From: a phage
Sequence record: PQ724393.1
Direction: 5' to 3' (one strand)
DNA: 64,000 bases
The notes below the pieces were generated by a model. The model searched no databases, was not told where the DNA came from, and worked only from the letters and a program-made list of their open reading frames with translations. Every line of letters begins with the position of its first letter. Position 1 is the first letter of the stretch. Both the position numbers and the translations under genes were made by a program. Of this stretch, positions 1 through 62,591 are shown one piece after another.

Positions 1-627
1 GGTATCCATCAGAGCTAAAGCTTGTTCGATAGTATTCAAGGTATCGTAAGCAATATCTTGATACTTTACAACTTCCGCATCATCTTTAGGTTTCCTATTA
101 GGTGACCAAATAACAGAAATAATAGCTTTTCCTTTATAACTATTTGTTTTAATCATGCAATTAGCCATCGGGTGAATAGTACGACAATCACCGGAAACTA
201 TAGTTTTAGAGGCCGCTTTGAGAATTAATGCAGAGTTAGCCTTGAATTCGGTAACCCAACGTTGCGGAAATAAACTACTAGGGTCCATACCTTTAATTTT
301 GATATAACCTTTTATGGTATCACCAAACCATTTGTAGCTAACAACACGGTTGGAACCTGGATGTTTCTCTTTGCCAAACTCTGAAAGGATGTCCTTATTG
401 ACCAGTCGCGAAAGCAGTCGAGAACCTTTAAATGTTTTAATGATATCATGAATGCACAAACGGCCTGCAATCTTTTCGATTTCAGATTTAAAATACAGTG
501 ACAAATCTTCATCAATTTGGTCTACCCATTTATTGATATTGGAAACTATCACCTCATACGGGGTTAATGGCGGTGTATTAGCAGTGATATACGTAGTAAA
601 AGCATTGATGTATTCGGTACGGGTCAT
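1..627 (-). CDS. hypothetical early protein, 5' portion only (gene runs off left edge)
   Basis: ATG at 627-625 preceded by GAGGAG; frame open to base 1; N-terminus MTRTEYINAF by manual translation; position matches T4 nrdC.x block. Confidence 0.5.
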   Translation of the reverse strand, partial: MTRTEYINAFTTYITANTPPLTPYEVIVSNINKWVDQIDEDLSLYFKSEIEKIAGRLCIHDIIKTFKGSRLLSRLVNKDILSEFGKEKHPGSNRVVSYKWFGDTIKGYIKIKGMDPSSLFPQRWVTEFKANSALILKAASKTIVSGDCRTIHPMANCMIKTNSYKGKAIISVIWSPNRKPKDDAEVVKYQDIAYDTLNTIEQALALMDT

Positions 628-655
628 GATATTCTCCTCAGTAGTTGATAAAAGG

Positions 656-685
656 ATTATACTCCATCCGTCCTTGGATGTAAAC
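656..685 (-). promoter_or_regulatory. sigma70-like promoter (GTTTAC-N18-TATAAT on minus strand)
   Basis: minus-strand reading GTTTACATCC...TATAAT upstream of the partial gene at 627. Confidence 0.45.
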
Positions 686-2669: not shown

Positions 2670-3194
2670 TTATGCGAGAACCGTCTTTAAACGCTCTTCA
2701 AATTTCTGAAGCAGAGCTTGGCGTTCAGCTCGTTGTGATTTGTACTGCTCGATACGACCTGAAGTGAGGGCGTACTGTTCGTTTACTGATTCCCGCATGA
2801 ATTCAGGAATCTCTTTACAAGCTTTGATTTCGTCAAACTTATCAATAACAGCTTGTTGTTCAGCAATCAGATTATCGAAATAAGCGATATCAGATTTAAC
2901 GTTTGCCAGGTCGGATTCAGTAGGCATTAAACGTTTGTTACGTTCAGCTTGATAAGCTTGATTGGTTTCACGACTCCAGTGAAGAGTACGTTTTTTGTTA
3001 GTGTTTTTATAGAGCTCTACAATACCAACTGAATCGATGACTGCAATCCAGTTCCAACGGCTTTTGTAAATCTCTCCTCCAGATACGGTAATCTCATTAC
3101 CACAAGCAACATCGTTAAAGAACTTGCTTTGTTTTTCAGATTTGAAATTACCGTTGTTGAAATTAATCAGTGAAAAAATATCTTTAGCGTTCAT
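2670..3194 (-). CDS. hypothetical protein (174 aa)
   Basis: ORF with GGAGG RBS; preceded by the repeated promoter-hairpin element. Confidence 0.6.
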   Translation of the reverse strand: MNAKDIFSLINFNNGNFKSEKQSKFFNDVACGNEITVSGGEIYKSRWNWIAVIDSVGIVELYKNTNKKRTLHWSRETNQAYQAERNKRLMPTESDLANVKSDIAYFDNLIAEQQAVIDKFDEIKACKEIPEFMRESVNEQYALTSGRIEQYKSQRAERQALLQKFEERLKTVLA

Positions 3195-3202
3195 GATAAC
3201 CT

Positions 3203-3249
3203 CCAGTAGTTGATAGGTCTATAGTATCATTTCTACTGGAGATGTAAAC
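3203..3249 (-). promoter_or_regulatory. repeated promoter-hairpin element (GTTTAC-N17-TACTAT with flanking inverted repeat)
   Basis: core TTGATAGGTCTATAGTATCA on plus strand; inverted repeat CCAGTAG / CTACTGG encloses it; GTAAAC at 3244-3249. Confidence 0.5.
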
Positions 3250-3603: not shown

Positions 3604-4584
3604 TTATTTCAGAAGTGTAACTTCAGCGATTTCGCTCCAGTCATTTTTATCGGTGGCAATGAAGTCCGCCAGATAAAGAGCCGTACGTAATGATACGTTA
3701 CGAAGACGAGATACATTGGCCTTCATCCAGGACAGTGCTTGATAAGTCTCAGCATCAGTCAGACCTCGATTTTGCAACATATCAGTGGAAAGGATAACGT
3801 CTTCAACACGAACCATAATCTCTTCGTTAGAGTGAACTCCGAGGTCTAAGTAAACTGAACGAGATACTAAAGCCTGGAGGTGTGGAGCAAGTTTAGTGCC
3901 ACGTTCTAATTCACGGTCAATATCAACGTTGGTGATGAACACGATGGTGCCTTCATATTCGAATTCTTTATCGATATTTTTATCATCGAGGTAAGAACTT
4001 GAAGTGCTCCAGCACACCTTACGTTTTTCACCGGTATCCAATGCCGCTTTTAACAGGTTCAGGATATCCATATCAGAGAATACATCGACATCATCGATAA
4101 GAAGAACACTATTAGGGCCGCGGTTATTCCAAAGCTGCTCGTAAAGACCGATTCCACTAATCTTTCCGTTGATTGATTTATATTCGATAGTTTCATTTTC
4201 GTGGGCATTCTGTAATGCTTTATCCAAAGAATACGTTTTACCAATACCTGCGGCACCAGAGATGATAAGGGAACGAATTTTACCATCGATGATTCCGTTA
4301 GTCATCATGTTCATTACTTTAAAACGTTTGTTGATGCGATGCTTCATTTCTTCAGCGGATTCAGTAACCATTGCAGGAGCTTCAGCACCTTCCATTTCAA
4401 CATCACATTTGAACACCCATATACCACGTTCAACACCATCAATCTGTACGAATACCTTACCATCACCGAGGTGAGCTTCGGATTCATGAATTTTGTTAGG
4501 GAACCAGGTTTTACCTGAACTCATGAACGTACCAGAGATTTCATTACCGCGATAGATACCTTTGTTGATTTTGATAGTTAACAT
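3604..4584 (-). CDS. P-loop NTPase (Walker A GAAGIGKT, Walker B VLLIDDVD), function unknown
   Basis: start moved to internal ATG at 4584 (GGAG RBS; the upstream part of the track ORF contains the promoter element); Walker motifs about 55 aa apart, AAA+-like spacing. Confidence 0.65.
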   Translation of the reverse strand: MLTIKINKGIYRGNEISGTFMSSGKTWFPNKIHESEAHLGDGKVFVQIDGVERGIWVFKCDVEMEGAEAPAMVTESAEEMKHRINKRFKVMNMMTNGIIDGKIRSLIISGAAGIGKTYSLDKALQNAHENETIEYKSINGKISGIGLYEQLWNNRGPNSVLLIDDVDVFSDMDILNLLKAALDTGEKRKVCWSTSSSYLDDKNIDKEFEYEGTIVFITNVDIDRELERGTKLAPHLQALVSRSVYLDLGVHSNEEIMVRVEDVILSTDMLQNRGLTDAETYQALSWMKANVSRLRNVSLRTALYLADFIATDKNDWSEIAEVTLLK

Positions 4585-4622
4585 TATATTCTCCGTTTCA
4601 CTCAGTAGATTTGATAGGTCCA

Positions 4623-4650
4623 TAATAACATGCTCTACGAGGTTGTAAAC
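4623..4650 (-). promoter_or_regulatory. sigma70-like promoter (GTTTAC-N16-TATTAT on minus strand)
   Basis: degenerate copy of the repeated element upstream of the ATPase gene. Confidence 0.45.
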
Positions 4651-4915: not shown

Positions 4916-5897
4916 GATACACCTCTTCGACGAACTTGTCCCAGAACTTCATGTCCACCTTCGCAGGCATACCGTTCTTAGCAGCCCAGATGGCATTGGT
5001 TTCGACTTCGTCTACAATAGCTTCAAGTTCGGCCTGCACATCTTTAAAAGCATGTAACCCCTGTTTGATTTCAAGGATAAATGGCGCAGTACGTAAAGGG
5101 TATTGAAGGTCACCAGTTTGATAGATTTCCTTCAACTGGTATCCGGCCCTATAAGCATGACTCAGAGCTTTCCAGTCAATACCTTCATTGGCTTCTGCCT
5201 TACGAGCACGTTCACCATATTCGGCGTCAAGCTTATTCAGAGATTGCTTGAGCTCGATTAATGACAAAGTAGTCTGATATTTACGTCCGAGAACAGTATA
5301 GAACGTTTGTGGGCCTGTTTTCTCATGGTTATGGAATACCCATTCACAGAATTCGTTTTCAGGGAGCCGATGTTTGATATCTTCTACCTTAGTGCGACGA
5401 AGACGGTCCGGAATTCCTTCTTGATAATCAACCCATTGTTCAGGAATCTGGTTGACTATTGCCAATACACCACGCAGAGCAGCCAGTCGAGAACCTTTAA
5501 CACCATATTTGGAAGCTTGCTTGCGGACATACCCTAAATAGGCTTTCATGTTGGTTGTATAGAACCGTGAACGGTTGTCTTGGATAAATTTCCATACGTC
5601 AGGTAAATCGGATTTGACAACCAGGTCAGCCGGTGTGTGAATCATGTCCAGGGCAACGGTTTCGCCATCGGCTGCCAGTTTAAAGAAATATTTCAGACTA
5701 TAAAGTTCATGGTCAACATCATCTTTTGTATTTTTGGTAGCCGTGTTATTCGTGTTCAGGTTTGTATGGTTCATAGCCGTACCTAACAGAATATCACGCG
5801 GATGTGGAACAAAGATTTCTTTAAAATCGATATCAGATTCCGGAGTACTTGTTCCATAAAGGTGGGAGCCAAAATATCCCTTCATAACTGTTCTCAT
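4887..5897 (-). CDS. nucleotidyltransferase-fold protein (Pol-beta-like GS-x10-DxD motif near N-terminus), function unknown
   Basis: N-terminus GYFGSHLYGTSTPESDIDF matches [GS]-x9-13-DxD NTase signature; 336 aa. Confidence 0.6.
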   Translation of the reverse strand: MRTVMKGYFGSHLYGTSTPESDIDFKEIFVPHPRDILLGTAMNHTNLNTNNTATKNTKDDVDHELYSLKYFFKLAADGETVALDMIHTPADLVVKSDLPDVWKFIQDNRSRFYTTNMKAYLGYVRKQASKYGVKGSRLAALRGVLAIVNQIPEQWVDYQEGIPDRLRRTKVEDIKHRLPENEFCEWVFHNHEKTGPQTFYTVLGRKYQTTLSLIELKQSLNKLDAEYGERARKAEANEGIDWKALSHAYRAGYQLKEIYQTGDLQYPLRTAPFILEIKQGLHAFKDVQAELEAIVDEVETNAIWAAKNGMPAKVDMKFWDKFVEEVYLDNHNSYYR

Positions 5898-6700
5898 TAT
5901 TCACCTCTTTCATAGTCTTCAATAAATTGCATAATTAAACGTTGATAGTTGGATTTGGGATATCCTAATTTACTAATATAGGTTCCGAAAGCTCCACGCT
6001 TAGGCCTATTTAATTTAACCCATAAAGAATAAAGCAAATCATAATCTTGCCAATGTTTCCCTATTCTTTGCTTTGCTTTAGAAGCATCAGATTGCCTCTT
6101 TTTAGTCTCTGGATTATTTAGAGATTTCTTAACAGCATTCGAATGCCTTTCTCTAACATCAGGGCGTTTAAATGCTTCTTTAATAGCTTTAGAAATTTTC
6201 TCTTTAACTTCAGGACGGTTTTGAGCTTCTATTTGAGCCGCCGACATTTTATCTTTTATTTCTGGTAGACTCATAGTTATAGAACGTTTATTTCTATATT
6301 CTTCAGTCTTCCATATTTCTTTCATCGTATTTGAGTGAATTTCTGAAAATTTTTCTCTAACTAATTGATACCCTCTAGAAGTTAGTTTAAGATTTCTTCC
6401 TAAAGAATCCTCGCCAAAGTTATAAAATGACCACCAGGCATAAATTAATCCTGAAGAATCAGAATGAATTCTAGCTAGAAGCCAGTGTGCTATAAAATGT
6501 TCTCTAGCTGTCAACAGAACCAAATTATTAGGTTCATCACTCCCGCCAATACATGACGGGATTATATGATGGGACTCTGTATAAAAATTTAATTTGGATT
6601 TGTCTAATCCTCTAAGTTTACCTCTTTGGATTAGACTATCATAAAGCTTGGTATAATTCATTATGGATTTGTTTTGTCCTCGAAGTGGATTACAGGACAC
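5897..6700 (-). CDS. HNH homing endonuclease with NUMOD-like DNA-binding repeats (MobD-like)
   Basis: HHIIPSCIGGSDEPNNLVLLTAREHFIAHWLL HNH motif; repeated N-x-PE-x-K-x-K-x-SKA-x-K units; track start is GTG at 6700, an internal ATG near 6661 is an alternative. Confidence 0.8.
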   Translation of the reverse strand: MSCNPLRGQNKSIMNYTKLYDSLIQRGKLRGLDKSKLNFYTESHHIIPSCIGGSDEPNNLVLLTAREHFIAHWLLARIHSDSSGLIYAWWSFYNFGEDSLGRNLKLTSRGYQLVREKFSEIHSNTMKEIWKTEEYRNKRSITMSLPEIKDKMSAAQIEAQNRPEVKEKISKAIKEAFKRPDVRERHSNAVKKSLNNPETKKRQSDASKAKQRIGKHWQDYDLLYSLWVKLNRPKRGAFGTYISKLGYPKSNYQRLIMQFIEDYERGE

Positions 6701-8390: not shown

Positions 8391-8627
8391 TCACCAGTAT
8401 TTGTTGATAGTAGAAATTAATTCTTGGGCTTGGGTGGTTTTCAGTTTACATCCACAACCCTTTAATGTGTCTTTAAGGAGCCACGGTTCCTTGAGCTCGT
8501 CTTTTTCTAGGCGAATTCTATATCCTCGATAATCGGCAAAGATACTTCGGTCGTCGAATATCTTAATCTCAAGGATACGACCGTTGATTTCATATTCTAA
8601 TGAAACCGTAGTACTTGTAAGTTTCAC
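8391..8627 (-). CDS. hypothetical small protein (78 aa)
   Basis: short ORF downstream of promoter-like element; track start is GTG. Confidence 0.45.
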   Translation of the reverse strand: MKLTSTTVSLEYEINGRILEIKIFDDRSIFADYRGYRIRLEKDELKEPWLLKDTLKGCGCKLKTTQAQELISTINKYW

Positions 8628-8655
8628 ACCGTTCTCCTCATTAGTTGATAGGTCT

Positions 8656-8684
8656 ATAGTATCACGTTCCTAGAGGATGTAAAT
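8656..8684 (-). promoter_or_regulatory. repeated promoter-hairpin element (ATTTAC-N17-TACTAT)
   Basis: core TTGATAGGTCTATAGTATCA; GTAAAT at 8679-8684. Confidence 0.45.
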
Positions 8685-9478: not shown

Positions 9479-9486
9479 TATTTATA
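9479..9486 (-). promoter_or_regulatory. late promoter TATAAATA (minus strand)
   Basis: TATTTATA on plus strand upstream of rI-like gene. Confidence 0.35.
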
Positions 9487-10349: not shown

Positions 10350-10535
10350 TTATTCTGTAATACTTTCCAGATAATTTTCTAAATCGTCTGAAGCCTTATT
10401 AAGGGCTTCTAGCGCTTTATAATAGTCTTCACGGGAGTAATATTCTGTATGAAGTTCTTCGTCGTATTCGCTTTTAGCATCAACAACAGTTTCAATCATA
10501 TCCAGAATTTTATTTTTCTGTTCTTTAGTAATCAT
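10350..10535 (-). CDS. hypothetical small acidic protein (61 aa)
   Basis: short ORF; tk.x position. Confidence 0.4.
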   Translation of the reverse strand: MITKEQKNKILDMIETVVDAKSEYDEELHTEYYSREDYYKALEALNKASDDLENYLESITE

Positions 10536-10543
10536 AATATACC

Positions 10544-10729
10544 CTAAAGCGTATTCACATAAGCAATTAATTCGTTTTCTTTCTCATCAAATCTATTAGC
10601 AAATTCTTCCAGACGTTCGGCATCTATCGGGCCGTATTCATCGTAAAAAGCGTTTGCTTCGGTATGTTCATCCAAAAGCTCATGAATAAGCTCAAACAAT
10701 CTACTTTTCTGACTAATACTTAAACTCAT
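10544..10729 (-). CDS. hypothetical small acidic protein (61 aa)
   Basis: short ORF; tk.x position. Confidence 0.4.
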   Translation of the reverse strand: MSLSISQKSRLFELIHELLDEHTEANAFYDEYGPIDAERLEEFANRFDEKENELIAYVNTL

Positions 10730-10953
10730 TTAGGTTCACCATATCGCACAAATTTAGGATGTTCGCAATAACCGGAATGAAAACCTTCACCCTTATGATT
10801 AGAACATCCTTTATTAGAACAGTACCACCAGTAATCATATTCGCAATTCATTTCATCATTGCATAAAGCTGCGATTACCGGCCATTCACATTTTTCACAT
10901 TTAGCCGTTTTAAGAATTCTAGCTTGGCTCATAACCATTGCACCTTTAAGCAA
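10726..10953 (-). CDS. Cys-rich small protein (75 aa), probable zinc ribbon
   Basis: CEKCEW...CNDEMNC...CSNKGC pattern. Confidence 0.45.
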   Translation of the reverse strand: MLKGAMVMSQARILKTAKCEKCEWPVIAALCNDEMNCEYDYWWYCSNKGCSNHKGEGFHSGYCEHPKFVRYGEPK

Positions 10954-12497: not shown

Positions 12498-12956
12498 TTA
12501 AAGATAGATTACTTTCGTGCTGGTTTTACCTTCTAAACGTTTAGAGTTAACAAATGCCATACGACATTTTAATGAATATCCTTTATCAGGATGTTTACGA
12601 TCTACGGTCATACCCAACCATAAGGTTTTATCAGTAATCTCGAGACGCAGCGGACGATACACTTTACCTGGGACAATTTCAGATTCTATGTCAGGAAGAG
12701 GCTCCTGGATTAAAAATTCATGGATTTCTTTAACATGGTTATGGAGTTGCTTGAATAAAGCAAAAACGTATTTTTCGTCAATTTCACGTTGGATAGCACG
12801 GTCCAACAAGTGATTAGAGTACTTAATAAAGAAAGCTGGGACCCCGCTCTTGATGGCGGCTTTTTTGATGGACGCGTTAAGTTCACGAAATTCGGTTTCG
12901 AACTGACGACGTAATTTGTTGCGGCGGATGAATACTTCTGAATTAATTTCTGACAT
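12498..12956 (-). CDS. regB: RegB sequence-specific endoribonuclease
   Basis: MSEINSEVFIRRNKLRR...LDRAIQREIDE closely matches T4 RegB as recalled; start set at ATG 12956 with GGAG RBS. Confidence 0.85.
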   Translation of the reverse strand: MSEINSEVFIRRNKLRRQFETEFRELNASIKKAAIKSGVPAFFIKYSNHLLDRAIQREIDEKYVFALFKQLHNHVKEIHEFLIQEPLPDIESEIVPGKVYRPLRLEITDKTLWLGMTVDRKHPDKGYSLKCRMAFVNSKRLEGKTSTKVIYL

Positions 12957-12967
12957 TTTGTAATCTC

Positions 12968-13013
12968 CTGTAGTTGATAGGTCTATAGTATCATGTCTAC
13001 AGGAGATGTAAAC
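12968..13013 (-). promoter_or_regulatory. repeated promoter-hairpin element with 11-bp stem masking the regB SD
   Basis: minus strand GTTTAC-ATCTCCTGTAG-loop with TACTAT-CTACAGGAGAT then 7 nt then ATG; identical copy upstream of denV. Confidence 0.55.
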
Positions 13014-14474: not shown

Positions 14475-14834
14475 TTAAAGATGGTCGAGTGCCGGATTAT
14501 GAGGCTTTTCTGCTTTAGCAGTATTTTTGTGCCAATCCGATTTAGAAACACGAATTGCATCCGCACCGTAAGAGCTCTTAAGGAGGCCCTTTTTATTGTA
14601 AACACTTATAGAAGTAAGGGTGTCACCATTCCAAGTAGCATGGACGAAGTTGGATTTAGATTTAAGTTCTTTAGCCAGGCTCTGGTTGGTAGCCATAGAA
14701 GCAAAGTCTTTACCTGTAACTTTAAAAACTTCAGATGGGTTCAGCCCTTCTTTAGCCTTAGCCAATTGTTCAGGAGACATAGCTTCGTTAATGCGCTGAG
14801 TAGATTCAGTAATAAATTGTTGGTAAGTTTTCAT
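14475..14834 (-). CDS. internal-protein-like protein with capsid targeting sequence (MKTYQQFITE)
   Basis: N-terminal decapeptide matches T4 IP capsid-targeting sequence with E at the gp21 cleavage position. Confidence 0.6.
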   Translation of the reverse strand: MKTYQQFITESTQRINEAMSPEQLAKAKEGLNPSEVFKVTGKDFASMATNQSLAKELKSKSNFVHATWNGDTLTSISVYNKKGLLKSSYGADAIRVSKSDWHKNTAKAEKPHNPALDHL

Positions 14835-14858
14835 ATTATTCCTTAAGTTGATAGAAGT

Positions 14859-14888
14859 ATTCTACCACGGATTTAATTAAGCGTAAAT
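14859..14888 (-). promoter_or_regulatory. degenerate copy of repeated promoter element (ATTTAC-N18-TAGAAT)
   Basis: AGTTGATAGAAGTATTCTA resembles the repeat core; upstream of IP-like gene. Confidence 0.35.
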
Positions 14889-15293
14889 AGCCTTGCCATA
14901 GTGTTTGTACCAGGTAGGACGTTGTGCAATTTTTTCATCCAAACGGGTTTGTGAAATAGCGATAGAAGCTTCGTGAGGAGCATAATCACCACGGAATTCC
15001 TGAGGAATATCACTAATGTCCTGGACCGTAGTATCTTTGATATTAAAGCCACGTTTTAAACATTCGGCTATAAGCTCGATTTGACGCTTACGTAAAAATT
15101 CAAGCTTATCGTAAAAGAATGTAACATGGCCTGCGCCAAGGATAAAAGTAGGACTGATTTTGAAATCACGGACACGTTTACCATTAGCAACATGCTTACG
15201 AACTGCACCGAAAACACGTGGTAATTCACGATATTCAGCCATTAAGTGTTGGTCAGCCAATTCAGATACTAAGGTAAGGTTGATACGAGTCAT
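14877..15293 (-). CDS. denV: endonuclease V (pyrimidine dimer DNA glycosylase)
   Basis: 138 aa, [31 protein letters not shown]... essentially identical to T4 DenV as recalled. Confidence 0.95.
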
Positions 15294-15303
15294 TTTTAAT
15301 CTC

Positions 15304-15349
15304 CTGTAGTTGATAGGTCTATAGTATCATGTCTACAGGAGATGTAAAC
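15304..15349 (-). promoter_or_regulatory. repeated promoter-hairpin element with 11-bp stem masking the denV SD
   Basis: 46-bp identical to the regB copy; ATCTCCTGTAG / CTACAGGAGAT stem, GGAG in 3' arm. Confidence 0.55.
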
Positions 15350-15373
15350 AACTTTTATCAAGTATCGGCTTTA

Positions 15374-15970
15374 TTAATTACCACGGGCTGCATTAGCAAC
15401 GGCGTAAGCGTACTGAACATTAGCGTCTTTAAACGTACCTTTAGAGGTATCTATTTCTGCCTTAAAGCCACCTTTAGCCATAACATCAGCAAATTCTTTA
15501 CGGAAAGCCATTGCATCAAGACCTTTCCATGATGATTTGTGCTTGGCAAATTCAAGACCGGCGAAGTTGACAGCCTTAGCCAATTTATTATCAATAGTCC
15601 ATTTACCTGCTTTAGGTACAACTACCGGGCCTTTTTGTTTAGAGAACAGTTTTAAATTCCAGCGACGAAGGTCGCCGTCAGCTTTAACAAAAGCTGCGTC
15701 CAAGTTACTAGCAACAACATCCTGAATATGGCCAAATTTAAGCCCATCAGCTTCAATATTTAGGTCGTTACGCCAGCGAAGTCCTTCCCAGGCGAAAGCT
15801 TTAAAGTCAGAAGCTTTTGTAGCTAAATACCGTTCAATAGGAGCTGTTTTAGCGTCAAAACCATTTCCTGGGTTGTCAACGCCATTTCCTCGGTAGGTCC
15901 ACTCATCTTTATTAATGCCTTGGACCTTTCCTACAGAAGCTTCGGCGATAAATTCTTTATACGTTTTCAT
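15374..15970 (-). CDS. ipIII: internal protein III-like protein with capsid targeting sequence (MKTYKEFIAE)
   Basis: CTS decapeptide; 198 aa, basic; adjacent to e as ipIII is in T4. Confidence 0.65.
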   Translation of the reverse strand: MKTYKEFIAEASVGKVQGINKDEWTYRGNGVDNPGNGFDAKTAPIERYLATKASDFKAFAWEGLRWRNDLNIEADGLKFGHIQDVVASNLDAAFVKADGDLRRWNLKLFSKQKGPVVVPKAGKWTIDNKLAKAVNFAGLEFAKHKSSWKGLDAMAFRKEFADVMAKGGFKAEIDTSKGTFKDANVQYAYAVANAARGN

Positions 15971-16013
15971 ACGGGTTCCTTAAAGGTAAATATTTTAATT
16001 AGTCTGTTCAATT

Positions 16014-16042
16014 AACTGTAGATATACTATCACAATTCTAGG
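16014..16042 (-). promoter_or_regulatory. sigma70-like promoter (GTTTAC-N17-TAGTAT)
   Basis: upstream of ipIII-like gene. Confidence 0.45.
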
Positions 16043-16057
16043 AGATGTAAACTGCTT

Positions 16058-16546: not shown

Positions 16547-16548
16547 AA

Positions 16549-16575
16549 TACCTCCTGAGTATAGGAGGTATTTAT
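16549..16575 (-). promoter_or_regulatory. late promoter TATAAATA plus SD-masking hairpin for gene e
   Basis: minus strand TATAAATA followed by CCUCCU-AUACUC-AGGAGG hairpin and then ATG; same arrangement as described for T4 e. Confidence 0.65.
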
Positions 16576-16576
16576 A

Positions 16577-18545: not shown

Positions 18546-18758
18546 TTACTTTTTGTTGAAAAAGTACATTTTACCTTTAGGAGATAAGGATACACGAAGG
18601 GCGTTACCAATACCAACTGAACATTTAACCAGGTCAGCAGATTTCAATTCACCAAATGCTTGACGAAGGTCTCCATCACGAGTGTTAACCATCAGGCATT
18701 TAGCACCAGCTGCACGAACTTCGTTTAACATGTTGATTGCTTGGTTAGAAAGTTTCAT
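18546..18758 (-). CDS. hypothetical small protein (about 70 aa)
   Basis: start moved to internal ATG downstream of the promoter element that lies inside the track ORF. Confidence 0.4.
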   Translation of the reverse strand: MKLSNQAINMLNEVRAAGAKCLMVNTRDGDLRQAFGELKSADLVKCSVGIGNALRVSLSPKGKMYFFNKK

Positions 18759-18795
18759 TTTATTCTCCATTTCACTCTGTTGTTTTGATAGGTCT

Positions 18796-18824
18796 ATAGT
18801 ATCACACCTATAGACCTTGTACAC
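18796..18824 (-). promoter_or_regulatory. repeated promoter-hairpin element (inverted repeat GGTCTATAG / CTATAGACC)
   Basis: core TTGATAGGTCTATAGTATCA; 9-bp inverted repeat. Confidence 0.45.
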
Positions 18825-24178: not shown

Positions 24179-24457
24179 TTATTTCATATTATTGAAATAA
24201 TCTTCCGCATCAAAATCGTTATCATGATAAACTTTGGTAGACAATTTAACATAACCTTCGGCGGCGAACATATTAACCACAACCTTTACAGTATACCATT
24301 GTCCATCATCATTACCCATTACTGCATAGGTTTCAAATATGGGATGGTCATCACCGATAACTTTAATATCGTTAACTGTAGCACCAAATTCTTCAGGAAC
24401 GCATTTCATAAAGAAATTAAACAATTCACCATAATTATCCATTTTACTCTCCTTCAC
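24179..24457 (-). CDS. hypothetical small acidic protein (92 aa)
   Basis: ORF with GGAG RBS. Confidence 0.5.
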   Translation of the reverse strand: MKESKMDNYGELFNFFMKCVPEEFGATVNDIKVIGDDHPIFETYAVMGNDDGQWYTVKVVVNMFAAEGYVKLSTKVYHDNDFDAEDYFNNMK

Positions 24458-24477
24458 ACTGTTGTTTTGATAGGTCT

Positions 24478-24506
24478 ATAGTATCATGTTCTACGAAAGA
24501 GTAAAC
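24478..24506 (-). promoter_or_regulatory. repeated promoter-hairpin element (GTTTAC-N17-TACTAT)
   Basis: core TTGATAGGTCTATAGTATCA. Confidence 0.5.
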
Positions 24507-25589: not shown

Positions 25590-25665
25590 TTGGTATCCCG
25601 CCCTGGGATCGAACCAGGACCGCAAACTTAGAAGGATCGTATGCTATCCATTACACCAGCGGGAC
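25590..25665 (-). tRNA. tRNA-Arg (anticodon UCU)
   Basis: minus strand GTCCCGCTGGTGTAATGGATAGCATACGATCCTTCTAAGTTTGCGGTCCTGGTTCGATCCCAGGGCGGGATACCA; cloverleaf foldable by eye, anticodon loop CTTCTAAG. Confidence 0.8.
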
Positions 25666-25670
25666 ATAGT

Positions 25671-25747
25671 TGGTGACCCGGACCAGATTTGAACTGGTAA
25701 CCTTTCCCTTATGAGGGGACTGCTGCTAACCATTGAGCTACAGGGCC
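25671..25747 (-). tRNA. tRNA with CAU anticodon (Ile-type as in T4, or Met)
   Basis: minus strand GGCCCTGTAGCTCAATGGTTAGCAGCAGTCCCCTCATAAGGGAAAGGTTACCAGTTCAAATCTGGTCCGGGTCACCA; anticodon loop CCTCATAAG. Confidence 0.75.
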
Positions 25748-26870: not shown

Positions 26871-27068
26871 TTACTCACCTTTAGAGATTTTATCCATAAC
26901 GAAAGAAATTGAACCAATTAAGAATGCCACTACTAAAGAAATTATATTCTCGGAAGTTGAAAGCATATCGAGCATGAATCCTGCAAACATACTAAAGCCG
27001 AAAGCAGTAACAGCGGCCAGTGCAGTAACATTTCTAATTAATTCACAACGTTTCATTTTATTCTCCAA
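26871..27068 (-). CDS. small membrane protein (65 aa)
   Basis: two hydrophobic helices. Confidence 0.4.
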   Translation of the reverse strand: MENKMKRCELIRNVTALAAVTAFGFSMFAGFMLDMLSTSENIISLVVAFLIGSISFVMDKISKGE

Positions 27069-27092
27069 TCACTCATTTGTTTTGATAGGGCT

Positions 27093-27122
27093 ATAGTATC
27101 ACCACTAAAGCCCGTTGTAAAC
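27093..27122 (-). promoter_or_regulatory. repeated promoter-hairpin element (GTTTAC-N18-TACTAT; inverted repeat GGGCT / AGCCC)
   Basis: core TTGATAGGGCTATAGTATCA, one substitution compensated in the flanking repeat. Confidence 0.45.
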
Positions 27123-44755: not shown

Positions 44756-46287
44756 TGTCTACAAATACACTAAAACACATAAGTGATAAATCAGAATTTA
44801 AAACATTCGACCCTACCGGGTCGAATTTTGACCCCTCTATTACTAATGTCCAGGATGCATTGGCGTCTATTTCCGCTATAGGTGTTACAGGTAATATACC
44901 TTCGGCTTCTGAAACAGAACAGGGTATTATTAGATTAGCGACCCAACAAGAAGTTATTGATGGCACCGATACTTTCTCTGCAGTAACTCCGGCCACTTTA
45001 AAAGGCCGTTTAGATATTCCTACTCAAGCAACAGAAACTTATGTAGGTATCACCCGTTATGCCACTAATGGTGAAGCCATTGCTGGAACAGAAACCCAGG
45101 CTGCAATCGTAGCATCGTCTTTGAAAGCTACTATAGATTATACATTCACCAATCGTTTAGCCACAGAGAACACTACAGGCGTACTCAAGATTTCAACCCT
45201 GCCGGCCGCTCTAGCAGGTACAGATGATACGACGGCAATGACACCGCTGAAAACCGCCCAGGCAATTGGCGCTGCTACATCGGCATTACCGACTTATGCC
45301 AGTGCTACTCAAACTACTGAAGGTATTGTTAGAATCGCAACAAATGCTGAAGTGGCAAATGGCACATTGACTAATGGTGTGGCAATTTCTCCTTCTGGGT
45401 TAAAATCTTTAACTTCTACCCAAGGACGGGCAGGTATTATTAGATTAGCCACTCCACAAGAAGCTTCTGCTGGCAGTGATTCTAATATAGCTTTATCTCC
45501 TTCAACTCTTCTTTCTCGTACTGGTACTACCGGAAGAGTGGGCGTTGTTAAATTAACAACTACGGTCGGTTCTGGTGATGGAAGCACTGCATTGGCATAT
45601 AATGCTAACGTTATTTCTACCACAGGCGGCACCATTAATGGTACTTTAAACGTTAACGGTACTTTACGTCGCAATGGGCGCGATGTTGTTACTATCGACC
45701 AATTAAAAGATTCTGTCCCTATCGGTACTATTGTTATGTGGGGTGGCCAGATTAATAATATCCCTGCAGGTTGGGCCGTTTGTGATGGCGGTAACTCTGG
45801 TGAACAAGGATTCCGAAATGTAGTTGGTAGTAAATGGGGTTCAACTGGAGCACGTCCTGACTTCCGTGGATTATATCCTAGAGGTGCAAACCAGACTAAC
45901 GACGGTGGATTAAGAGAATGGGATGCCAACGTTAGAATTAGAGATGCCAAAGGTAATGATGCCAAAGGTAAACCTAAATTAGGCGTGGGTTGCGGTTCAT
46001 ATGGCCATGGTACTGTACAAGCCCAGCAGCTTCGTTTCCATAAACACGCTGGTGGTTTTGGCGAACACGACAACGCAGGTGCATTTGGTAATACCGTTCG
46101 TTCCAACTTTGCCGGTACTCGTAAAGGGCTGGACTGGGATAACCGTTCCTACTTTACAAACGAAGGATATGAAATTGACGGTTCTGGTTCACGAGATTCA
46201 AGAACTACTCTAAACAGTGAAGGGTTGGTTGGTAACGAAAACCGTCCTTGGACTATGTCCATCCTATTCATTATTAAAGTTGCTTAA
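44755..46287 (+). CDS. 12: short tail fiber protein gp12
   Basis: repetitive N-terminal fibre region; size and position as T4 gp12. Confidence 0.85.
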   Translation: MSTNTLKHISDKSEFKTFDPTGSNFDPSITNVQDALASISAIGVTGNIPSASETEQGIIRLATQQEVIDGTDTFSAVTPATLKGRLDIPTQATETYVGITRYATNGEAIAGTETQAAIVASSLKATIDYTFTNRLATENTTGVLKISTLPAALAGTDDTTAMTPLKTAQAIGAATSALPTYASATQTTEGIVRIATNAEVANGTLTNGVAISPSGLKSLTSTQGRAGIIRLATPQEASAGSDSNIALSPSTLLSRTGTTGRVGVVKLTTTVGSGDGSTALAYNANVISTTGGTINGTLNVNGTLRRNGRDVVTIDQLKDSVPIGTIVMWGGQINNIPAGWAVCDGGNSGEQGFRNVVGSKWGSTGARPDFRGLYPRGANQTNDGGLREWDANVRIRDAKGNDAKGKPKLGVGCGSYGHGTVQAQQLRFHKHAGGFGEHDNAGAFGNTVRSNFAGTRKGLDWDNRSYFTNEGYEIDGSGSRDSRTTLNSEGLVGNENRPWTMSILFIIKVA

Positions 46288-59315: not shown

Positions 59316-60875
59316 ATGAAAAAGAATGCATTAGTTCAAAAATGGTCCGCTCTGCTGGAAAACGAAGCCCTTCCTGAAATCGTGGGTGCTTCTAAACAAG
59401 CTATCATCGCTAAAATTTTCGAAAACCAGGAACAAGACATCCTGACTGCTCCGGAATACCGTGATGAAAAAATCTCTGAAGCATTTGGTTCTTTCCTGAC
59501 CGAAGCTGAAATTGGTGGTGACCACGGTTATGATGCTACCAATATCGCAGCTGGCCAGACTTCTGGTGCTGTAACTCAGATTGGGCCGGCAGTAATGGGT
59601 ATGGTTCGTCGTGCTATTCCTCATCTGATTGCTTTTGATATTTGTGGTGTTCAGCCTCTGAATAACCCTACCGGCCAGGTATTTGCCCTTCGTGCAGTTT
59701 ACGGTAAAGACCCTATCGCTGCTGGCGCTAAAGAAGCTTTCCATCCGATGTATTCTCCGGACGCTATGTTCTCTGGTCAGGGTGCTGCTAAATCTTTCGA
59801 AGCACTGGCCGCAAGCAAAGTTCTGGAAGTTGGTAAAATTTATTCCCACTTCTTCGAAGCTACCGGTGCTGCACACTTCCAGGCTGTTGAAGCTGTAACC
59901 GTTGATGCTGCTGCTACCGATGCCGCTAAACTGGATGCTGCTGTTACCGCTTTGATTGAAGCTGGTAAGTTGGCTGAATTGGCTGAAGGTATGGCTACTT
60001 CTATCGCTGAACTTCAGGAAGGCTTTAACGGTTCTCAGGATAACCCATGGAACGAAATGGGCTTCCGCATCGACAAACAAGTTATCGAAGCTAAATCCCG
60101 TCAGCTGAAAGCAAGCTACTCTATCGAACTGGCACAGGACCTTCGTGCAGTACACGGTATGGATGCAGATGCTGAACTGTCCGGTATCCTTGCTACCGAA
60201 ATTATGCTCGAAATCAACCGTGAAGTTATCGATTGGATTAACTACTCTGCACAGGTTGGTAAATCTGGTATGACCAACACCGTTGGCGCTAAAGCTGGTG
60301 TGTTTGACTTCCAGGACCCGATTGATATCCGTGGTGCTCGTTGGGCCGGTGAGAGCTTTAAAGCCCTTCTGTTCCAGATTGATAAAGAAGCAGCCGAAAT
60401 CGCTCGTCAGACCGGTCGTGGTGCTGGTAACTTCATCATCGCTTCCCGTAACGTAGTTAACGTACTGGCTGCAGTTGATACTTCTGTAAGTTATGCAGCT
60501 CAAGGTCTGGGTCAGGGTTTCAACGTTGACACAACCAAAGCAGTATTTGCCGGTGTTCTTGGTGGTAAATATCGTGTTTACATCGACCAGTATGCTCGTT
60601 CCGATTACTTCACCATCGGTTATAAAGGTTCCAACGAAATGGACGCAGGTATCTACTATGCTCCGTACGTTGCACTGACTCCGCTGCGTGGTTCCGATCC
60701 GAAGAACTTCCAACCGGTAATGGGCTTCAAAACTCGTTACGGTATCGGTATTAACCCGTTCGCTGACCCAGCTGCTCAGGCGCCTACCAAACGTATTCAG
60801 AATGGTATGCCTGACATCGTTAACAGCCTCGGTCTGAATGGTTACTTCCGTCGGGTTTATGTCAAAGGAATTTGA
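59316..60875 (+). CDS. 23: major capsid protein gp23
   Basis: 519 aa; very high similarity to T4 gp23 along whole length as recalled. Confidence 0.97.
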   Translation: MKKNALVQKWSALLENEALPEIVGASKQAIIAKIFENQEQDILTAPEYRDEKISEAFGSFLTEAEIGGDHGYDATNIAAGQTSGAVTQIGPAVMGMVRRAIPHLIAFDICGVQPLNNPTGQVFALRAVYGKDPIAAGAKEAFHPMYSPDAMFSGQGAAKSFEALAASKVLEVGKIYSHFFEATGAAHFQAVEAVTVDAAATDAAKLDAAVTALIEAGKLAELAEGMATSIAELQEGFNGSQDNPWNEMGFRIDKQVIEAKSRQLKASYSIELAQDLRAVHGMDADAELSGILATEIMLEINREVIDWINYSAQVGKSGMTNTVGAKAGVFDFQDPIDIRGARWAGESFKALLFQIDKEAAEIARQTGRGAGNFIIASRNVVNVLAAVDTSVSYAAQGLGQGFNVDTTKAVFAGVLGGKYRVYIDQYARSDYFTIGYKGSNEMDAGIYYAPYVALTPLRGSDPKNFQPVMGFKTRYGIGINPFADPAAQAPTKRIQNGMPDIVNSLGLNGYFRRVYVKGI

Positions 60876-60939: not shown

Positions 60940-61206
60940 CTATGCAATCTTAACACGACGGTTGATGATATCACGGAAGTCAATACGATTTTCTTGGATT
61001 TTCAGCCAGTTACCAGATTTGTCTTTGGTATGGGTAGAGTATTCACCGTTCCACCAGAAGTCGGTAGCATAAGCCATGGCTTCGTATTTCTTAACTAGTG
61101 CATTCACTGCATTACCGTTAGGATTGGAACCATATTTTTCTACCAGGGCTTTGATGTCTTTATCAAGAGCGGAAAGAGTAGTACGAATAAAGTTTAACTT
61201 GTTCAT
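60940..61206 (-). CDS. hypothetical small protein (about 88 aa) between genes 23 and 24
   Basis: start at ATG 61206 with GAGGAG RBS; driven by copy of repeated promoter element; no GIY-YIG or HNH motif. Confidence 0.5.
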   Translation of the reverse strand: MNKLNFIRTTLSALDKDIKALVEKYGSNPNGNAVNALVKKYEAMAYATDFWWNGEYSTHTKDKSGNWLKIQENRIDFRDIINRRVKIA

Positions 61207-61235
61207 TTTTAATCTCCTCATGTTTTGATAGGTCT

Positions 61236-61265
61236 ATAGTAACATGTGATAACCTTGCTGTAAAC
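61236..61265 (-). promoter_or_regulatory. repeated promoter-hairpin element (GTTTAC-N18-TACTAT)
   Basis: core TTGATAGGTCTATAGTAACA, only copy in the late region. Confidence 0.5.
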
Positions 61266-61271
61266 AACTTT

Positions 61272-61279
61272 TATAAATA
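61272..61279 (+). promoter_or_regulatory. late promoter TATAAATA for gene 24
   Basis: exact match. Confidence 0.65.
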
Positions 61280-61307: not shown

Positions 61308-62591
61308 ATGGCAAAGATTAACGAATTACTGCGCGAGTCAACAACTACTTCTAGCAACTCATTGGGTCGCCCTAATCTTGTTGCTTTGACCCGTGCTACA
61401 ACCAAATTGATTTACCGTGATATTATTGCTGAACAACGTACTAGCCAGCCTATTGCTGCATTGTATGGTGTCAAATATCTTACTCCTGATAATGAATTTA
61501 GCTTCCAAACTGGTGCCGTTTATGGTGGTGAAGTTGGTTCTAAAGACCGTGAAACTATCCCGGAACTCACAGATAAGGCCCAGGCTATTGCCAAGGGTGA
61601 ATATTTCAAGTATCAGAACATAGTTTATAAGGCTCTTCAAGCAAGCCCACTCGCATCCACTAGCGCTACAGAATTGGCTGATGCCCTTCAAGAAGGTTTG
61701 GTGTCATTAACATGTCGTCTGGTTCCTGATGCGGCTCACACAGAGAAATTCGAAGCAGGTGATGTTGAAATTAGTAATGCAGTATTCCAGGTTAATAAAT
61801 GGAACGCACCTGTTAAGTCTCGTAAACTTAAGACCGCTTTGACTGTAGAACTAGCCCAAGACATGGAATCCAATGGCTTCGACGCCCCTGCATTCTTAGA
61901 AGACCTCCTGGCTACAGTAATGGCTGATGAGATTAATAAAGACGTTCTGCAGTCTCTAATAACCGTATCTAAACGCTATAAAGTTACCGGTGTATCTGAT
62001 AATGGTATCATGGATTTGACTTATGATAGCGCTCCAGAATCTGCACGTAAACTTTATGAAATTGTTTGTGAGATGAATTCTGAAATCCAGAAAACTACTT
62101 CTTATTCTGGTACGTTTGTTGTGGCTTCAAGTCGTGTAGCTGCAATGCTTGCGGGTTCAGGCTGGTTAAAACATAAACCTGAAGATAATAATTGGCTCCC
62201 AGAAACTGCCTATGGTTATTTGCTGAATGGATTACCTCTGTTCTGTGACGTTAACAGCCCATTGGATTATGTTATCGTCGGTGTTAAAGAGAACTATGGT
62301 GGTAATGAAGTCGTCGGTTCTATTTTCTACGCCCCATACACAGAAGGCCTGGATTTAGATGACCCGGAACACGTCGGTGCTTATAAGGTTATTGTTGACC
62401 CGGATTCATTACAGCCTTCTATTTCTCTGATGGTTCGTTATGCGCTGTCCGCTAACCCGTACACCGTAGCTAAAGACGATAAAGAAGCTCGTGTTATCGA
62501 TGCAACCAATATGGATTTAATGGCTGGTCAGAGTAATATGTCCTATCTGCTCGGTGTTAAACTTCCAGCAATTATTTACGAGGCTGATTAA
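61308..62591 (+). CDS. 24: head vertex protein gp24
   Basis: 427 aa; closely matches T4 gp24 as recalled. Confidence 0.95.
   Translation: MAKINELLRESTTTSSNSLGRPNLVALTRATTKLIYRDIIAEQRTSQPIAALYGVKYLTPDNEFSFQTGAVYGGEVGSKDRETIPELTDKAQAIAKGEYFKYQNIVYKALQASPLASTSATELADALQEGLVSLTCRLVPDAAHTEKFEAGDVEISNAVFQVNKWNAPVKSRKLKTALTVELAQDMESNGFDAPAFLEDLLATVMADEINKDVLQSLITVSKRYKVTGVSDNGIMDLTYDSAPESARKLYEIVCEMNSEIQKTTSYSGTFVVASSRVAAMLAGSGWLKHKPEDNNWLPETAYGYLLNGLPLFCDVNSPLDYVIVGVKENYGGNEVVGSIFYAPYTEGLDLDDPEHVGAYKVIVDPDSLQPSISLMVRYALSANPYTVAKDDKEARVIDATNMDLMAGQSNMSYLLGVKLPAIIYEAD

Follow-up and report, generated by a model that had tools for sequence, protein, structure and literature searches.

A repeated early-promoter cassette in a T4-like coliphage, with copy-specific hairpins predicted to mask the Shine–Dalgarno sequence of some genes on read-through RNA

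The short gap in front of regB in a 64,000-nucleotide stretch of phage DNA (sequence record PQ724393.1; this whole stretch is hereafter called the window) raises the question of why an intergenic element that recurs before many minus-strand genes should combine promoter-like motifs with inverted repeats reaching into the Shine–Dalgarno (SD) sequence. The window shares 92-97% identity with the JS98/WG01/fDHCT2 group of T4-like coliphages, and the open reading frame (ORF) downstream of the focal copy of the element (positions 12,968 to 13,013) matches the PHROG endoribonuclease family with E = 7e-72, that is, RegB. The answer that we favour as an overall explanation, at a probability of roughly 0.6, is that the element is an early-promoter cassette which, in one class of its copies (class A), would carry an SD mask limited to RNA reading through from further upstream.

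The first part of this answer, that the element is a sigma-70 early promoter with an extended -10 region of a JS98/T4-like coliphage, is supported by its sequence anatomy. The copies present, on the minus strand, a common order of upstream stop codon, short A-rich tract, GTTTAC, a 17-nt spacer ending in TGA, TACTAT, AGACCT, ATCAA, 10-30 nt with GGAG or GAGG, and ATG, and each cassette takes up the whole intergenic gap of ~60 nt between two minus-strand genes. The -35 hexamer varies between GTTTAC, GTGTAC, and ATTTAC, TG precedes TACTAT, and runs of A stand directly 5' of the -35 in most copies (ctaaaagca, gataaaagtt, ttaaaaaagat). All nine copies of the core described below and three relatives fit a pattern of GTTTAC, a spacer of ~17 nt, a TAnnnT -10, and an upstream TG. 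A generic consensus scan independently returned TTTACA-16-TACTAT with an upstream TG at 13012 and 15348, in agreement with a preliminary description of this DNA, made from the letters alone, which had read GTTTAC as a -35 element at sigma70 spacing and TACTAT as the -10. Every copy lies 35-60 nt from its downstream minus-strand ORF in the correct orientation, regB and denV being among these genes, and the layout is unchanged over ~100 distinct copies from many T4-like contigs. Transcription would probably start at the first A of ATCAA, 7 nt past the -10.

Comparison with the T4 early consensus, which had been proposed as a check, points the same way. T4-type early promoters are characterised by GTTTAC at -36 to -31 and an A-rich region at -40 to -44, with a preference for C at -3 to -1 in RB69 (PMC1524935), and those of T4 have extra conserved regions beyond the usual elements (PMC2988021); the GTTTAC, TGn, -10, and A-rich UP region of the window element all fit. 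It is because of this fit, together with the place of the copies directly 5' of early-gene orthologues, that we read the element as a promoter. The regB promoter of T4 has itself been termed a “typical early promoter” (PMC3014915), and the T4 RefSeq annotation NC_000866, in which the denV and regB promoters were sought, contains no promoter features. An internal dyad of the invariant core (e.g. 12974-12993, minus strand), TGATA-N9-TATCA, is folded by RNAfold into a small hairpin of 5 bp within the class A loop; it may be a simple consequence of the TGnTA...TATCA arrangement, or it may be meaningful.

A search of the whole window for the core, TGATACTATAGACCTATCAA, gave nine minus-strand copies at up to three mismatches, against 0 matches in shuffled sequence and 0 expected; six copies are exact, two carry one mismatch, and one carries three (Table 1). 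Copies are named here by the 5' coordinate of their core on the minus strand, 12993 being that of regB and 15329 that of denV. A relaxed search for a promoter followed by a (C/T)TATCA start region yielded two further, degenerate members with -35 hexamers at 684 and 14887, which display TTTAC(A/G), a 17-nt spacer, TATAAT or TAGAAT, and the common (C/T)TATCAA start region. With the related ipIII promoter, the family in the window amounts to 12, and, the ipIII promoter not being counted, 10 of the 11 members are held by the minus-strand early-gene array at 0.6-27 kb, the eleventh standing at 61.2 kb. The recurrence first described was thereby partly confirmed: the repeat is real and needs minor corrections. 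It was recovered at nine sites within a few bases of the positions originally given, as well as at the degenerate copies near 656 and 14859, while the site near 16014 was rejected as a core copy, being the ipIII early promoter gcagtttacatctcctagaattgtgaTAGTATatctacag with only the -35 and the start of the spacer in common. Two other matches were treated as chance, namely a plus-strand site at 45687-45706 (four mismatches to the 20-nt core, with 45690-45706 differing from the 17-nt pattern by three), whose flanks have no recognisable promoter layout, and a minus-strand pattern match at 31724 with a poor -35 and -10. In other phages, the core family occupies up to 15 places in JS98, three to five in RB69-like phages, and one in T4. 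The near-identical 20-nt core is a tight early-promoter consensus of this phage group, extending from -15 to +5, and its uniformity is probably kept by recombination or gene conversion between copies.

The hairpins around this core fall into two registers. In class A, an 11-bp stem forms between the 11 spacer nucleotides nearest the -35 and the 11 nt after ATCAA, GGAG included, and four alleles are perfectly compensated (CCTGTAG/CTACAGG, CCAGTAG/CTACTGG, CCATTAG/CTAATGG, and CCTCATG/CATGAGG). In class B, a 9-bp stem, GGTCTATAG-N8-CTATAGACC, joins the distal spacer with the -10 and discriminator, and in class C neither register is in use. Copies 3229, 12993, and 15329 of the window, in which the spacer pairs with the SD, belong to class A, and 18804 and 27101, in which the -10 is enclosed, belong to class B. 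These five of the 12 window copies are the ones with a strong copy-specific stem (27101 with one mismatch); the pairings of 8664, 4630, 24486, and 61244 are weak or bulged and do not rise above those of chimeras with swapped 5' halves. The statement that most copies are flanked by complementary inverted repeats was in this respect too generous, and GGTCTATAG/CTATAGACC had been mistaken for repeats flanking the core, of which the 3' arm is itself a part.

Selection on these stems was assessed in a gapless, core-anchored alignment of 123 distinct copies, obtained from 108 viral-contig stretches containing TACTATAGNCCTATCAA. Covariation, the absence of which had been named beforehand as refuting the idea, is present in register A: 68 double-change cells were counted against 38 ± 6.5 in shuffled alignments and the score was 0.25 against 0.16, a level reached by none of 500 shuffles and exceeding every slid register. 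Pair counting is uninformative for register B because its 3' arm lies within the invariant core, and a contingency table of AGNCC versus GG(T/G)CT was used instead. Among the copies carrying either spacer motif, AGACC occurs with spacer GGTCT at 15:0 and AGCCC with GGGCT at 28:1; the GGTCT/AGACC copies precede at least eight different genes and the GGGCT/AGCCC copies at least 14. At imperfect stem positions, G·U outnumbers A·C by 8:1 in the family stems and by 10:1 in 19 distinct SD-containing helices, an excess predicted by selection on the sense-strand transcript, which speaks against a double-stranded binding site as well as a cruciform. The summed folding energy of the true pairings in the window is -117.4, compared with -95.0 ± 6.4 for permuted 5' halves, of which six in 5000 reach it. 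When the 5' halves were swapped, four of 10 independent window copies (3229, 18804, 27101, and 12993, the arms of which are also those of 15329) beat all chimeras and the other six did not; the power of this test is low because a generic anti-SD is common to many spacers, anti-SD motifs (CTCC, CCTC, or TCCT) being found in 15 of 30 distinct proximal spacers against a background of 4%. Judged by these sequence comparisons, the hairpins are under selection and differ between copies.

The consequence for translation initiation was explored by folding each leader as it would appear on read-through RNA and on the transcript of its own promoter. Since the 5' arm of class A lies inside the promoter spacer, it is absent from any own-promoter RNA, wherever the start site falls. 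With masking defined as a probability below 0.1 that the SD is unpaired in the predicted folds, 36 of 100 distinct copies surveyed across phages are masked on read-through RNA and none on its own transcript. About seven are masked when the spacer is shuffled, and about 25 when the 5' halves are permuted between copies, a high figure attributable to the generic CTCC, CCTC, or TCCT carried by half of the distinct proximal spacers. Among nine window copies, predicted masking is complete in three, partial in three, and absent in three (Table 1). The read-through leader of regB folds with -19.4 kcal/mol (z = -5.3) and that of denV with -19.3 kcal/mol (z = -4.6), the own 26-nt leader of regB being predicted as unstructured (0 kcal/mol); the ORF behind the denV copy matches PHROG endonuclease V, and the same core and stem as in the window are present upstream of denV in T4 (cagtttacatctcctgtaggtatgatactatagacctatcaactacaggagaac). 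Copy 3229 (z = -2.8) has a true pairing better than all its chimeras, and the class B copy 18804 shows 9/9 pairs in register B (-15.4 kcal/mol, z = -2.5).

A ribosome binding site hidden on read-through RNA and exposed on the own transcript had been proposed for regB and denV, and the predicted folds bear this out, with probabilities of an unpaired SD of 0.00 on the former and 0.43-0.63 on the latter and with conservation across lineages; masking limited to read-through RNA is, as far as such modelling goes, strongly supported at these two genes. The GGAG does lie within the 3' arm of both, at the proposed distance of 7 nt from the ATG in denV and at 8 nt in regB. By comparative evidence, the proposed mechanism is well supported for copy 3229 as it is for regB and denV. 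Its extension to the whole dispersed family did not hold up: it applies to a subset (3/9 in the window, 36/100 across phages), and class B leaves the SD free.

At regB and denV, conservation of the predicted mask runs deep. Six of seven divergent regB lineages are masked on read-through RNA (P <= 0.02) and open on their own transcript (0.35-0.92), with the different arms listed in Table 1. For denV, the survey comprised 33 distinct upstream regions in which a promoter and an SD could be recognised; of these, 27 are masked on read-through RNA and none on its own transcript, the rate among upstream-shuffled controls being 21%. These denV masks comprise 21 distinct arm pairs in two architectures, one with the anti-SD in the proximal spacer (-28 to -23) and the other with it in the discriminator, from the end of the -10 to about +1 (-5 to +1), as in TATGAT-GTCTTCC...GGAGGACATC; in both, the anti-SD is upstream of the probable start site. 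In the close relative fDHCT2, denV has a different promoter and a pairing, GTGTTCTC/GAGAACAC, is still kept.

As an observation on the same leaders, the SD context of regB, GGAGATTACAA (12957-12968, minus strand), reads C where the RegB/S1 target consensus, GGAGRAYARAA, has its position 9, a base reported as absent there from the efficiently cut RegB sites of T4 (PMC1702504), and the denV leader GGAGATTAAAA is closer to that consensus than the regB leader is.

Read-through RNA could reach denV, which lies downstream of gene e and ipIII. The leader of gene e, whose ORF matches Phage_lysozyme, served as a positive control and shows the expected difference between read-through and late-promoter transcripts (Table 1). 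The late-promoter motif occurs on the minus strand of the early region only at gene e and at 9479-9486, and a scan for terminator-like sites along the path from gene e through ipIII to denV reported one weak site only, inside the e coding region. On this layout, a late transcript initiated at gene e would extend across e and ipIII as far as denV. In T4, the loci denV, regB, ipII, and ipIII all have stems; in predicted folds of T4, denV is masked and ipII and ipIII are not, and the unmasked state of the latter two fits the need for their translation from late read-through transcripts. Potential stem-loops before T4 ipIII, ipII, denV, and orf61.9 were reportedly described by Valerie et al. in 1986, with no comparative evidence or promoter-position model. 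The 61.2-kb copy has no same-strand gene upstream and no strong stem.

Given the repeat, its match to a promoter, its geometry, the selected complementarity, and the predicted folds, the following mechanism may be envisaged. The 5' arm of the hairpin lies inside the promoter, either in the spacer between -35 and -10 or in the discriminator before +1, and only RNAs initiated further upstream would carry it. In class A (regB, denV, and 3229), with the SD within the 3' arm, a polycistronic read-through RNA, whether delayed-early, middle, or, in the case of e-ipIII-denV, late, would fold an 11-bp helix hiding the GGAG from ribosomes and probably from RegB too. The RNA of the own promoter would begin inside the loop, lack the anti-SD arm, and remain open, and translation of class A early genes would thereby be bound to the short period in which their own early promoter fires. 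The class B hairpin would likewise be specific to read-through RNA and would leave the SD untouched unless an outer anti-SD helix stacks on top of it. What we infer here from sequence and predicted folding is where transcription starts, that read-through RNA exists and in what amount, and how translation responds. In a wider form of this proposal, the gene e switch would have a mirror image in general use among T-even phages, by which some early genes (several small ORFs besides regB and denV) are translated only from their own immediate-early transcript and stay silent on later read-through RNA, with the GGAG hidden from RegB, the arrangement having been kept across divergent T4-like lineages and apparently re-invented in two architectures; we put this forward tentatively, its chances falling somewhat short of even.

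Several points weigh against the early-promoter SD mask. About two thirds of the family (6/9 in the window) are not strongly masked, and the regB of one lineage, the L117 group, with a class B stem only, is predicted to keep its SD open on read-through RNA at 0.71. The masking of 21% of upstream-shuffled denV controls belongs here as well, and the counts are not independent, as copies and orthologues are related by descent and recombination. A generic CTCC or CCTC just after the -35, to which much of the masking signal is owed, could reflect a preference of the promoter spacer rather than an anti-SD. Where the anti-SD of denV lies in the discriminator, it ends at -1 to +1, and a start only a few nucleotides upstream would weaken the argument. 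A ribosome that terminates on the stop codon of the preceding gene, located 11 nt ahead of the 5' arm, might melt part of the helix and so bring about translational coupling instead of silencing. Finally, published work on related cassettes prefers a terminator or attenuator role for their stem-loops (PMC2839356).

This last view, developed for the promoter and stem-loop cassettes known as PeSLs (promoter-early stem-loops), would make the hairpins terminators or attenuators of upstream transcripts, after which the promoter restarts transcription and the effect on the SD is incidental. An RB49 stem-loop placed between a promoter and lacZ lowered expression to about the same extent as rrnB T1, and attenuation was proposed (Arbiol et al., PMC2839356). 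The three clear exceptions to denV masking, L156, L159, and L165, all from jumbo phages (contigs of 345-378 kb), have an open SD and a -35 (TTGACT) within a hairpin followed by a T-run, e.g. AAAAGGGTTGAC-TTCG-GTCAGCCCTTTTT, a genuine terminator-like structure forming a terminator-plus-promoter unit like the RB49-type PeSL. The stems of the present family are built otherwise: they are A/U-rich, no U-tract follows them (class A is followed by UUACAAAAUG and class B by UAUCAAAAC), and a terminator-like scan of the window, using a sequence criterion, reported none of them. Termination also gives no account of a 3' arm that tracks the SD through 21 denV arm pairs, nor of an anti-SD that is found now in the spacer and now in the discriminator but in every case upstream of +1, and we regard it as an improbable explanation of the family.

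Just as improbable, in our estimation, is a role of the hairpins in RNA stability or processing, through shielding of GGAG from RegB on long transcripts or through a block to 3'-to-5' exonucleases that would save the upstream cistron after cleavage; such a role would cover classes A and B together. RegB cuts GGAG in early SD sequences, including its own, secondary structure inhibits the cutting, and 16 RegB-resistant T4 RNAs have their GGAG within stable structures (PMC3014915, PMC1702504); the class B stems stand ~25 nt upstream of a GGAG, and the excess of G·U over A·C speaks for a function at the RNA level. Such shielding would overlap largely with SD masking, since a paired GGAG would be hidden from ribosomes and RegB alike, and the RegB resistance of T4 denV RNA has a sequence cause, the C at position 9 (PMC1702504).

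Least probable of all is that the inverted repeats have no RNA function, either as by-products of duplication, recombination or gene conversion, or templated quasi-palindrome correction, or as DNA-level features (a recombination site, a cruciform, or an operator with the dyad TGATA-N9-TATCA as its target). Over ~55 nt the cassettes of regB and denV are indeed identical, hybrid stems and an exact cassette replacement exist (both described below), and in RB49 and phi1 both mini-circles and recombination of PeSLs have been shown to occur (PMC2839356), but unrelated arms and two architectures recur at orthologous denV and regB genes, with the SD always included and its partner upstream of +1, neither G·U nor A·C would be tolerated by a cruciform or double-stranded site where the former prevails by 8-10:1, and recombination accounts for the spread of cassettes and not for arms staying complementary.

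If true, the SD mask on read-through RNA would mean that T4-type early genes are shut off at a post-transcriptional level as well, translation being bound to one transcript isoform and a period of 2-3 min whatever later transcription crosses the gene. It could explain how RegB, a toxic nuclease made under tight limits, or the early repair enzyme DenV avoids late synthesis, denV being downstream of the strongly late-transcribed e and ipIII, and the stem-loops of T-even PeSLs would come to be read as translational insulators instead of terminators. For annotation and engineering, the rule would be to expect isoform-specific translation wherever an anti-SD lies upstream of +1 in the spacer or discriminator of a promoter; the 5' arm in the spacer is mutable without touching the -35 or -10.

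Table 1. Promoter cassettes, related leaders, and regB lineages, with the predicted probability (P) that the SD is unpaired. All positions are on the minus strand of the window; the core column gives the position of TGATACTATAGACCTATCAA and, in brackets, the number of mismatches.
Feature	Position	Core	Description	P, read-through RNA	P, own transcript
Degenerate member	625-685		GTTTAC, 18 nt, TATAAT, ccttTTATCAA, then SD GAGGAG
Copy 3229, class A	3192-3249	3210-3229 (0)	Compensated stem ATCTCCAGTAG/CTACTGGAGGT; 5' of a 174-aa ORF with no assigned function	0.00	0.54
Copy 4630	4582-4650	4611-4630 (3)	Degenerate core TGTTATTATGGACCTATCAA; SD masking not predicted	0.60	0.48
Copy 8664	8625-8684	8645-8664 (0)	Bulged partial SD pairing of TCCTC.TAG with CTAATGAGGA; -35 ATTTAC; start GTG at 8627	0.37	0.66
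Copy 12993, regB, focal, class A	12954-13013	12974-12993 (0)	Upstream-gene stop TAA 13021-13019, 5 nt from -35; -35 GTTTAC 13013-13008; 5' arm ATCTCCTGTAG 13007-12997; TGA 12993-12991; -10 TACTAT 12990-12985; putative +1 A 12978; 3' arm CTACAGGAGAT 12973-12963 with SD GGAG 12968-12965; ATG 12956-12954	0.00	0.63
Degenerate member	14832-14888		ATTTAC, 18 nt, TAGAAT, acttCTATCAA
Copy 15329, denV, class A	15291-15349	15310-15329 (0)	Arms same as regB copy; GGAG 7 nt 5' of ATG at 15293	0.00	0.43
ipIII early promoter	15968-16052		Same -35 and spacer start as family, long leader; no core copy
Gene e leader (comparator)	16547-16576		Late promoter TATAAATA 16576-16569 overlaps 5' arm ATACCTCCT; 3' arm AGGAGGTAT is the SD	0.01	0.34 (late-promoter transcript)
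Copy 18804, class B	18756-18824	18785-18804 (0)	9-10 bp stem (A)GGTCTATAG-N8-CTATAGACC(T) around -10; SD ~25 nt further 3', unmasked	0.37	0.37
Copy 24486	24440-24506	24467-24486 (0)	No copy-specific stem; weak long-range pairing of CTCTTTC with GAAGGAGAG, not above chimeras	0.26	0.85
Copy 27101, class B	27054-27122	27082-27101 (1)	18-nt spacer; core variant AGCCC matched by spacer GGGCT (GGGCTtTAG/CTATAGCCC)	0.62	0.95
Copy 61244	61204-61265	61225-61244 (1)	Isolated; weak stem; no same-strand gene upstream	0.39	0.83
regB, window/JS98 lineage			AUCUCCUGUAG/CUACAGGAGAU	0.00	0.58
regB, T4 lineage			UCCUCUUgAC/GUuAAGAGGA	0.00	0.92
regB, L126 lineage			15-bp UUUCUCCUCUUUAUG/CAUAAAGAGGAGAAA	0.00	0.59
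regB, L127 lineage			L126 arms with two central mismatches	0.00	0.59
regB, L120 group			Outer UCUCC/GGAGA on inner class B stem	0.02	0.35
regB, L128 group			Outer UUUCCUU/AAGGAGA on inner GGGCCAUG stem	0.00	0.54
regB, L117 group			Class B stem only	0.71	0.68

Evidence was also obtained for recombination, a role that has been proposed for PeSLs. The denV cassette of the window (15297-15359) exactly replaces a 387-bp segment of fDHCT2 (L001 16248-16634) that holds another promoter together with ipII. The window is without ipII and its denV cassette follows directly after ipIII; T4 has ipII with its own promoter and hairpin. On sequence grounds, this pattern of presence and absence fits recombination between neighbouring promoter cassettes. 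Five synteny breaks separate the window from fDHCT2, one coinciding exactly with the denV cassette, one abutting the 14887 copy, and three without a copy. Within the flanks of the 3229 orthologue, the viral contig L098 carries a hybrid cassette whose 5' arm is that of the ATTAG allele and whose 3' arm is that of the CTACTGG allele; the L127 regB stem, with its two central mismatches, stands behind a different upstream gene. In both, recombination or gene conversion within the cassette seems to have left its mark.

Other differences from fDHCT2 were seen in the window. Two adjacent minus-strand ORFs of 61 aa, 10350-10535 and 10544-10729, have matches to DUF7438 and are apparently tandem paralogues; only one of them is covered by the fDHCT2 alignment, ~190 bp at 10353-10544 being extra in the window, and the ~200 bp at 10730-10927 are also unaligned. 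A further ~770 bp at 5902-6672 (minus strand) are absent from fDHCT2 and lie within a 267-aa ORF (5897-6700) with a GTG start and no Pfam match, with no promoter copy at either boundary. In an Rfam scan of the whole window only two tRNAs reached the gathering score and the element had no match; these are adjacent tRNA genes at 25594-25747 (minus strand, RF00005, 48.8 and 50.9 bits), where fDHCT2 is annotated with tRNA-Arg and tRNA-Met.

The isolated copy 61244 serves an 88-aa ORF (60940-61265, minus strand) with no Pfam match, located between plus-strand gp23 and gp24-like genes. Its flanks are a 519-aa ORF (59316-60875, plus strand), taken as a putative gp23, and a 427-aa ORF (61308-62591, plus strand), which matches Pfam Gp23 and is probably gp24. 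In T4, this place between the two genes is that of segD. A plus-strand TATAAATA motif at 61272-61279 overlaps with the A/T-rich stretch preceding this copy's minus-strand promoter.

How far does the cassette resemble systems already known? With the early promoters of T4 it shares GTTTAC, TGn, the -10, the A-rich UP region, extra conserved positions, and a place 5' of early genes, and the T4 regB and denV promoters occupy positions orthologous to the window copies. It differs in a core of unusual uniformity, 20 nt being identical in six copies, and in the embedded SD complementarity, which is no part of the definition of T4 early promoters. Resemblance to gene e, claimed in the preliminary description, holds for the logic and fails for the promoter. 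The leaders of T4 e, soc, 49, I-TevI, and segB and of Aeh1 mobE follow the same logic, a long RNA hiding the SD or AUG and an internal promoter giving RNA without the 5' arm (PMC3014915, PMC2988022). The window cassettes, however, have an early sigma-70 promoter, their genes are early, and none of them contains the late-promoter motif TATAAATA; the predicted effect is the mirror image, with translation from immediate-early RNA only. Sequestration of the ribosome binding site combined with an internal promoter is listed for late promoters and genes only in the two 2010 reviews of T4 (PMC3014915, PMC2988022), and our literature search for an SD hairpin nested in an early promoter, or for T4 start-site maps, retrieved nothing specific.

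The closest published relatives, which the preliminary description had not recognised, are the PeSLs, as the promoter and stem-loop cassettes of T4-like phages have been called (Arbiol et al. 2010, PMC2839356; Comeau et al. 2014, PMC4122927). Like the window cassettes, they are repeated, AT-rich intergenic units in which an early promoter of sigma-70-like type is combined with a stem-loop, an SD, and a start codon, and both are found mainly near small early or ORFan genes; an association with indels is known for PeSLs and may extend to the window cassettes. The T4/PST PeSL promoter consensus TTTACW-N17-TAYWAT fits the window element, and the class B stems overlapping the -10 correspond to one published PeSL subclass. 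The stem-loops of PeSLs have been placed upstream of the start site, in five subclasses in RB49 and phi1 (PMC2839356) and “just upstream of the promoter” in PST and T4 (PMC4122927), and they were interpreted as terminators or attenuators in PMC2839356, in the main text of which the word “translation” is absent. Class A of the window, by contrast, spans the -10 and start site, ends in the SD, covaries with it, is without terminator features, and belongs to no described subclass; the JS98/Dhakavirus-type core consensus is not described in PMC2839356 or PMC4122927 either. The promoter in PeSL-like cassette form was therefore known already, and it is the SD mask nested in an early promoter that appears to be new.

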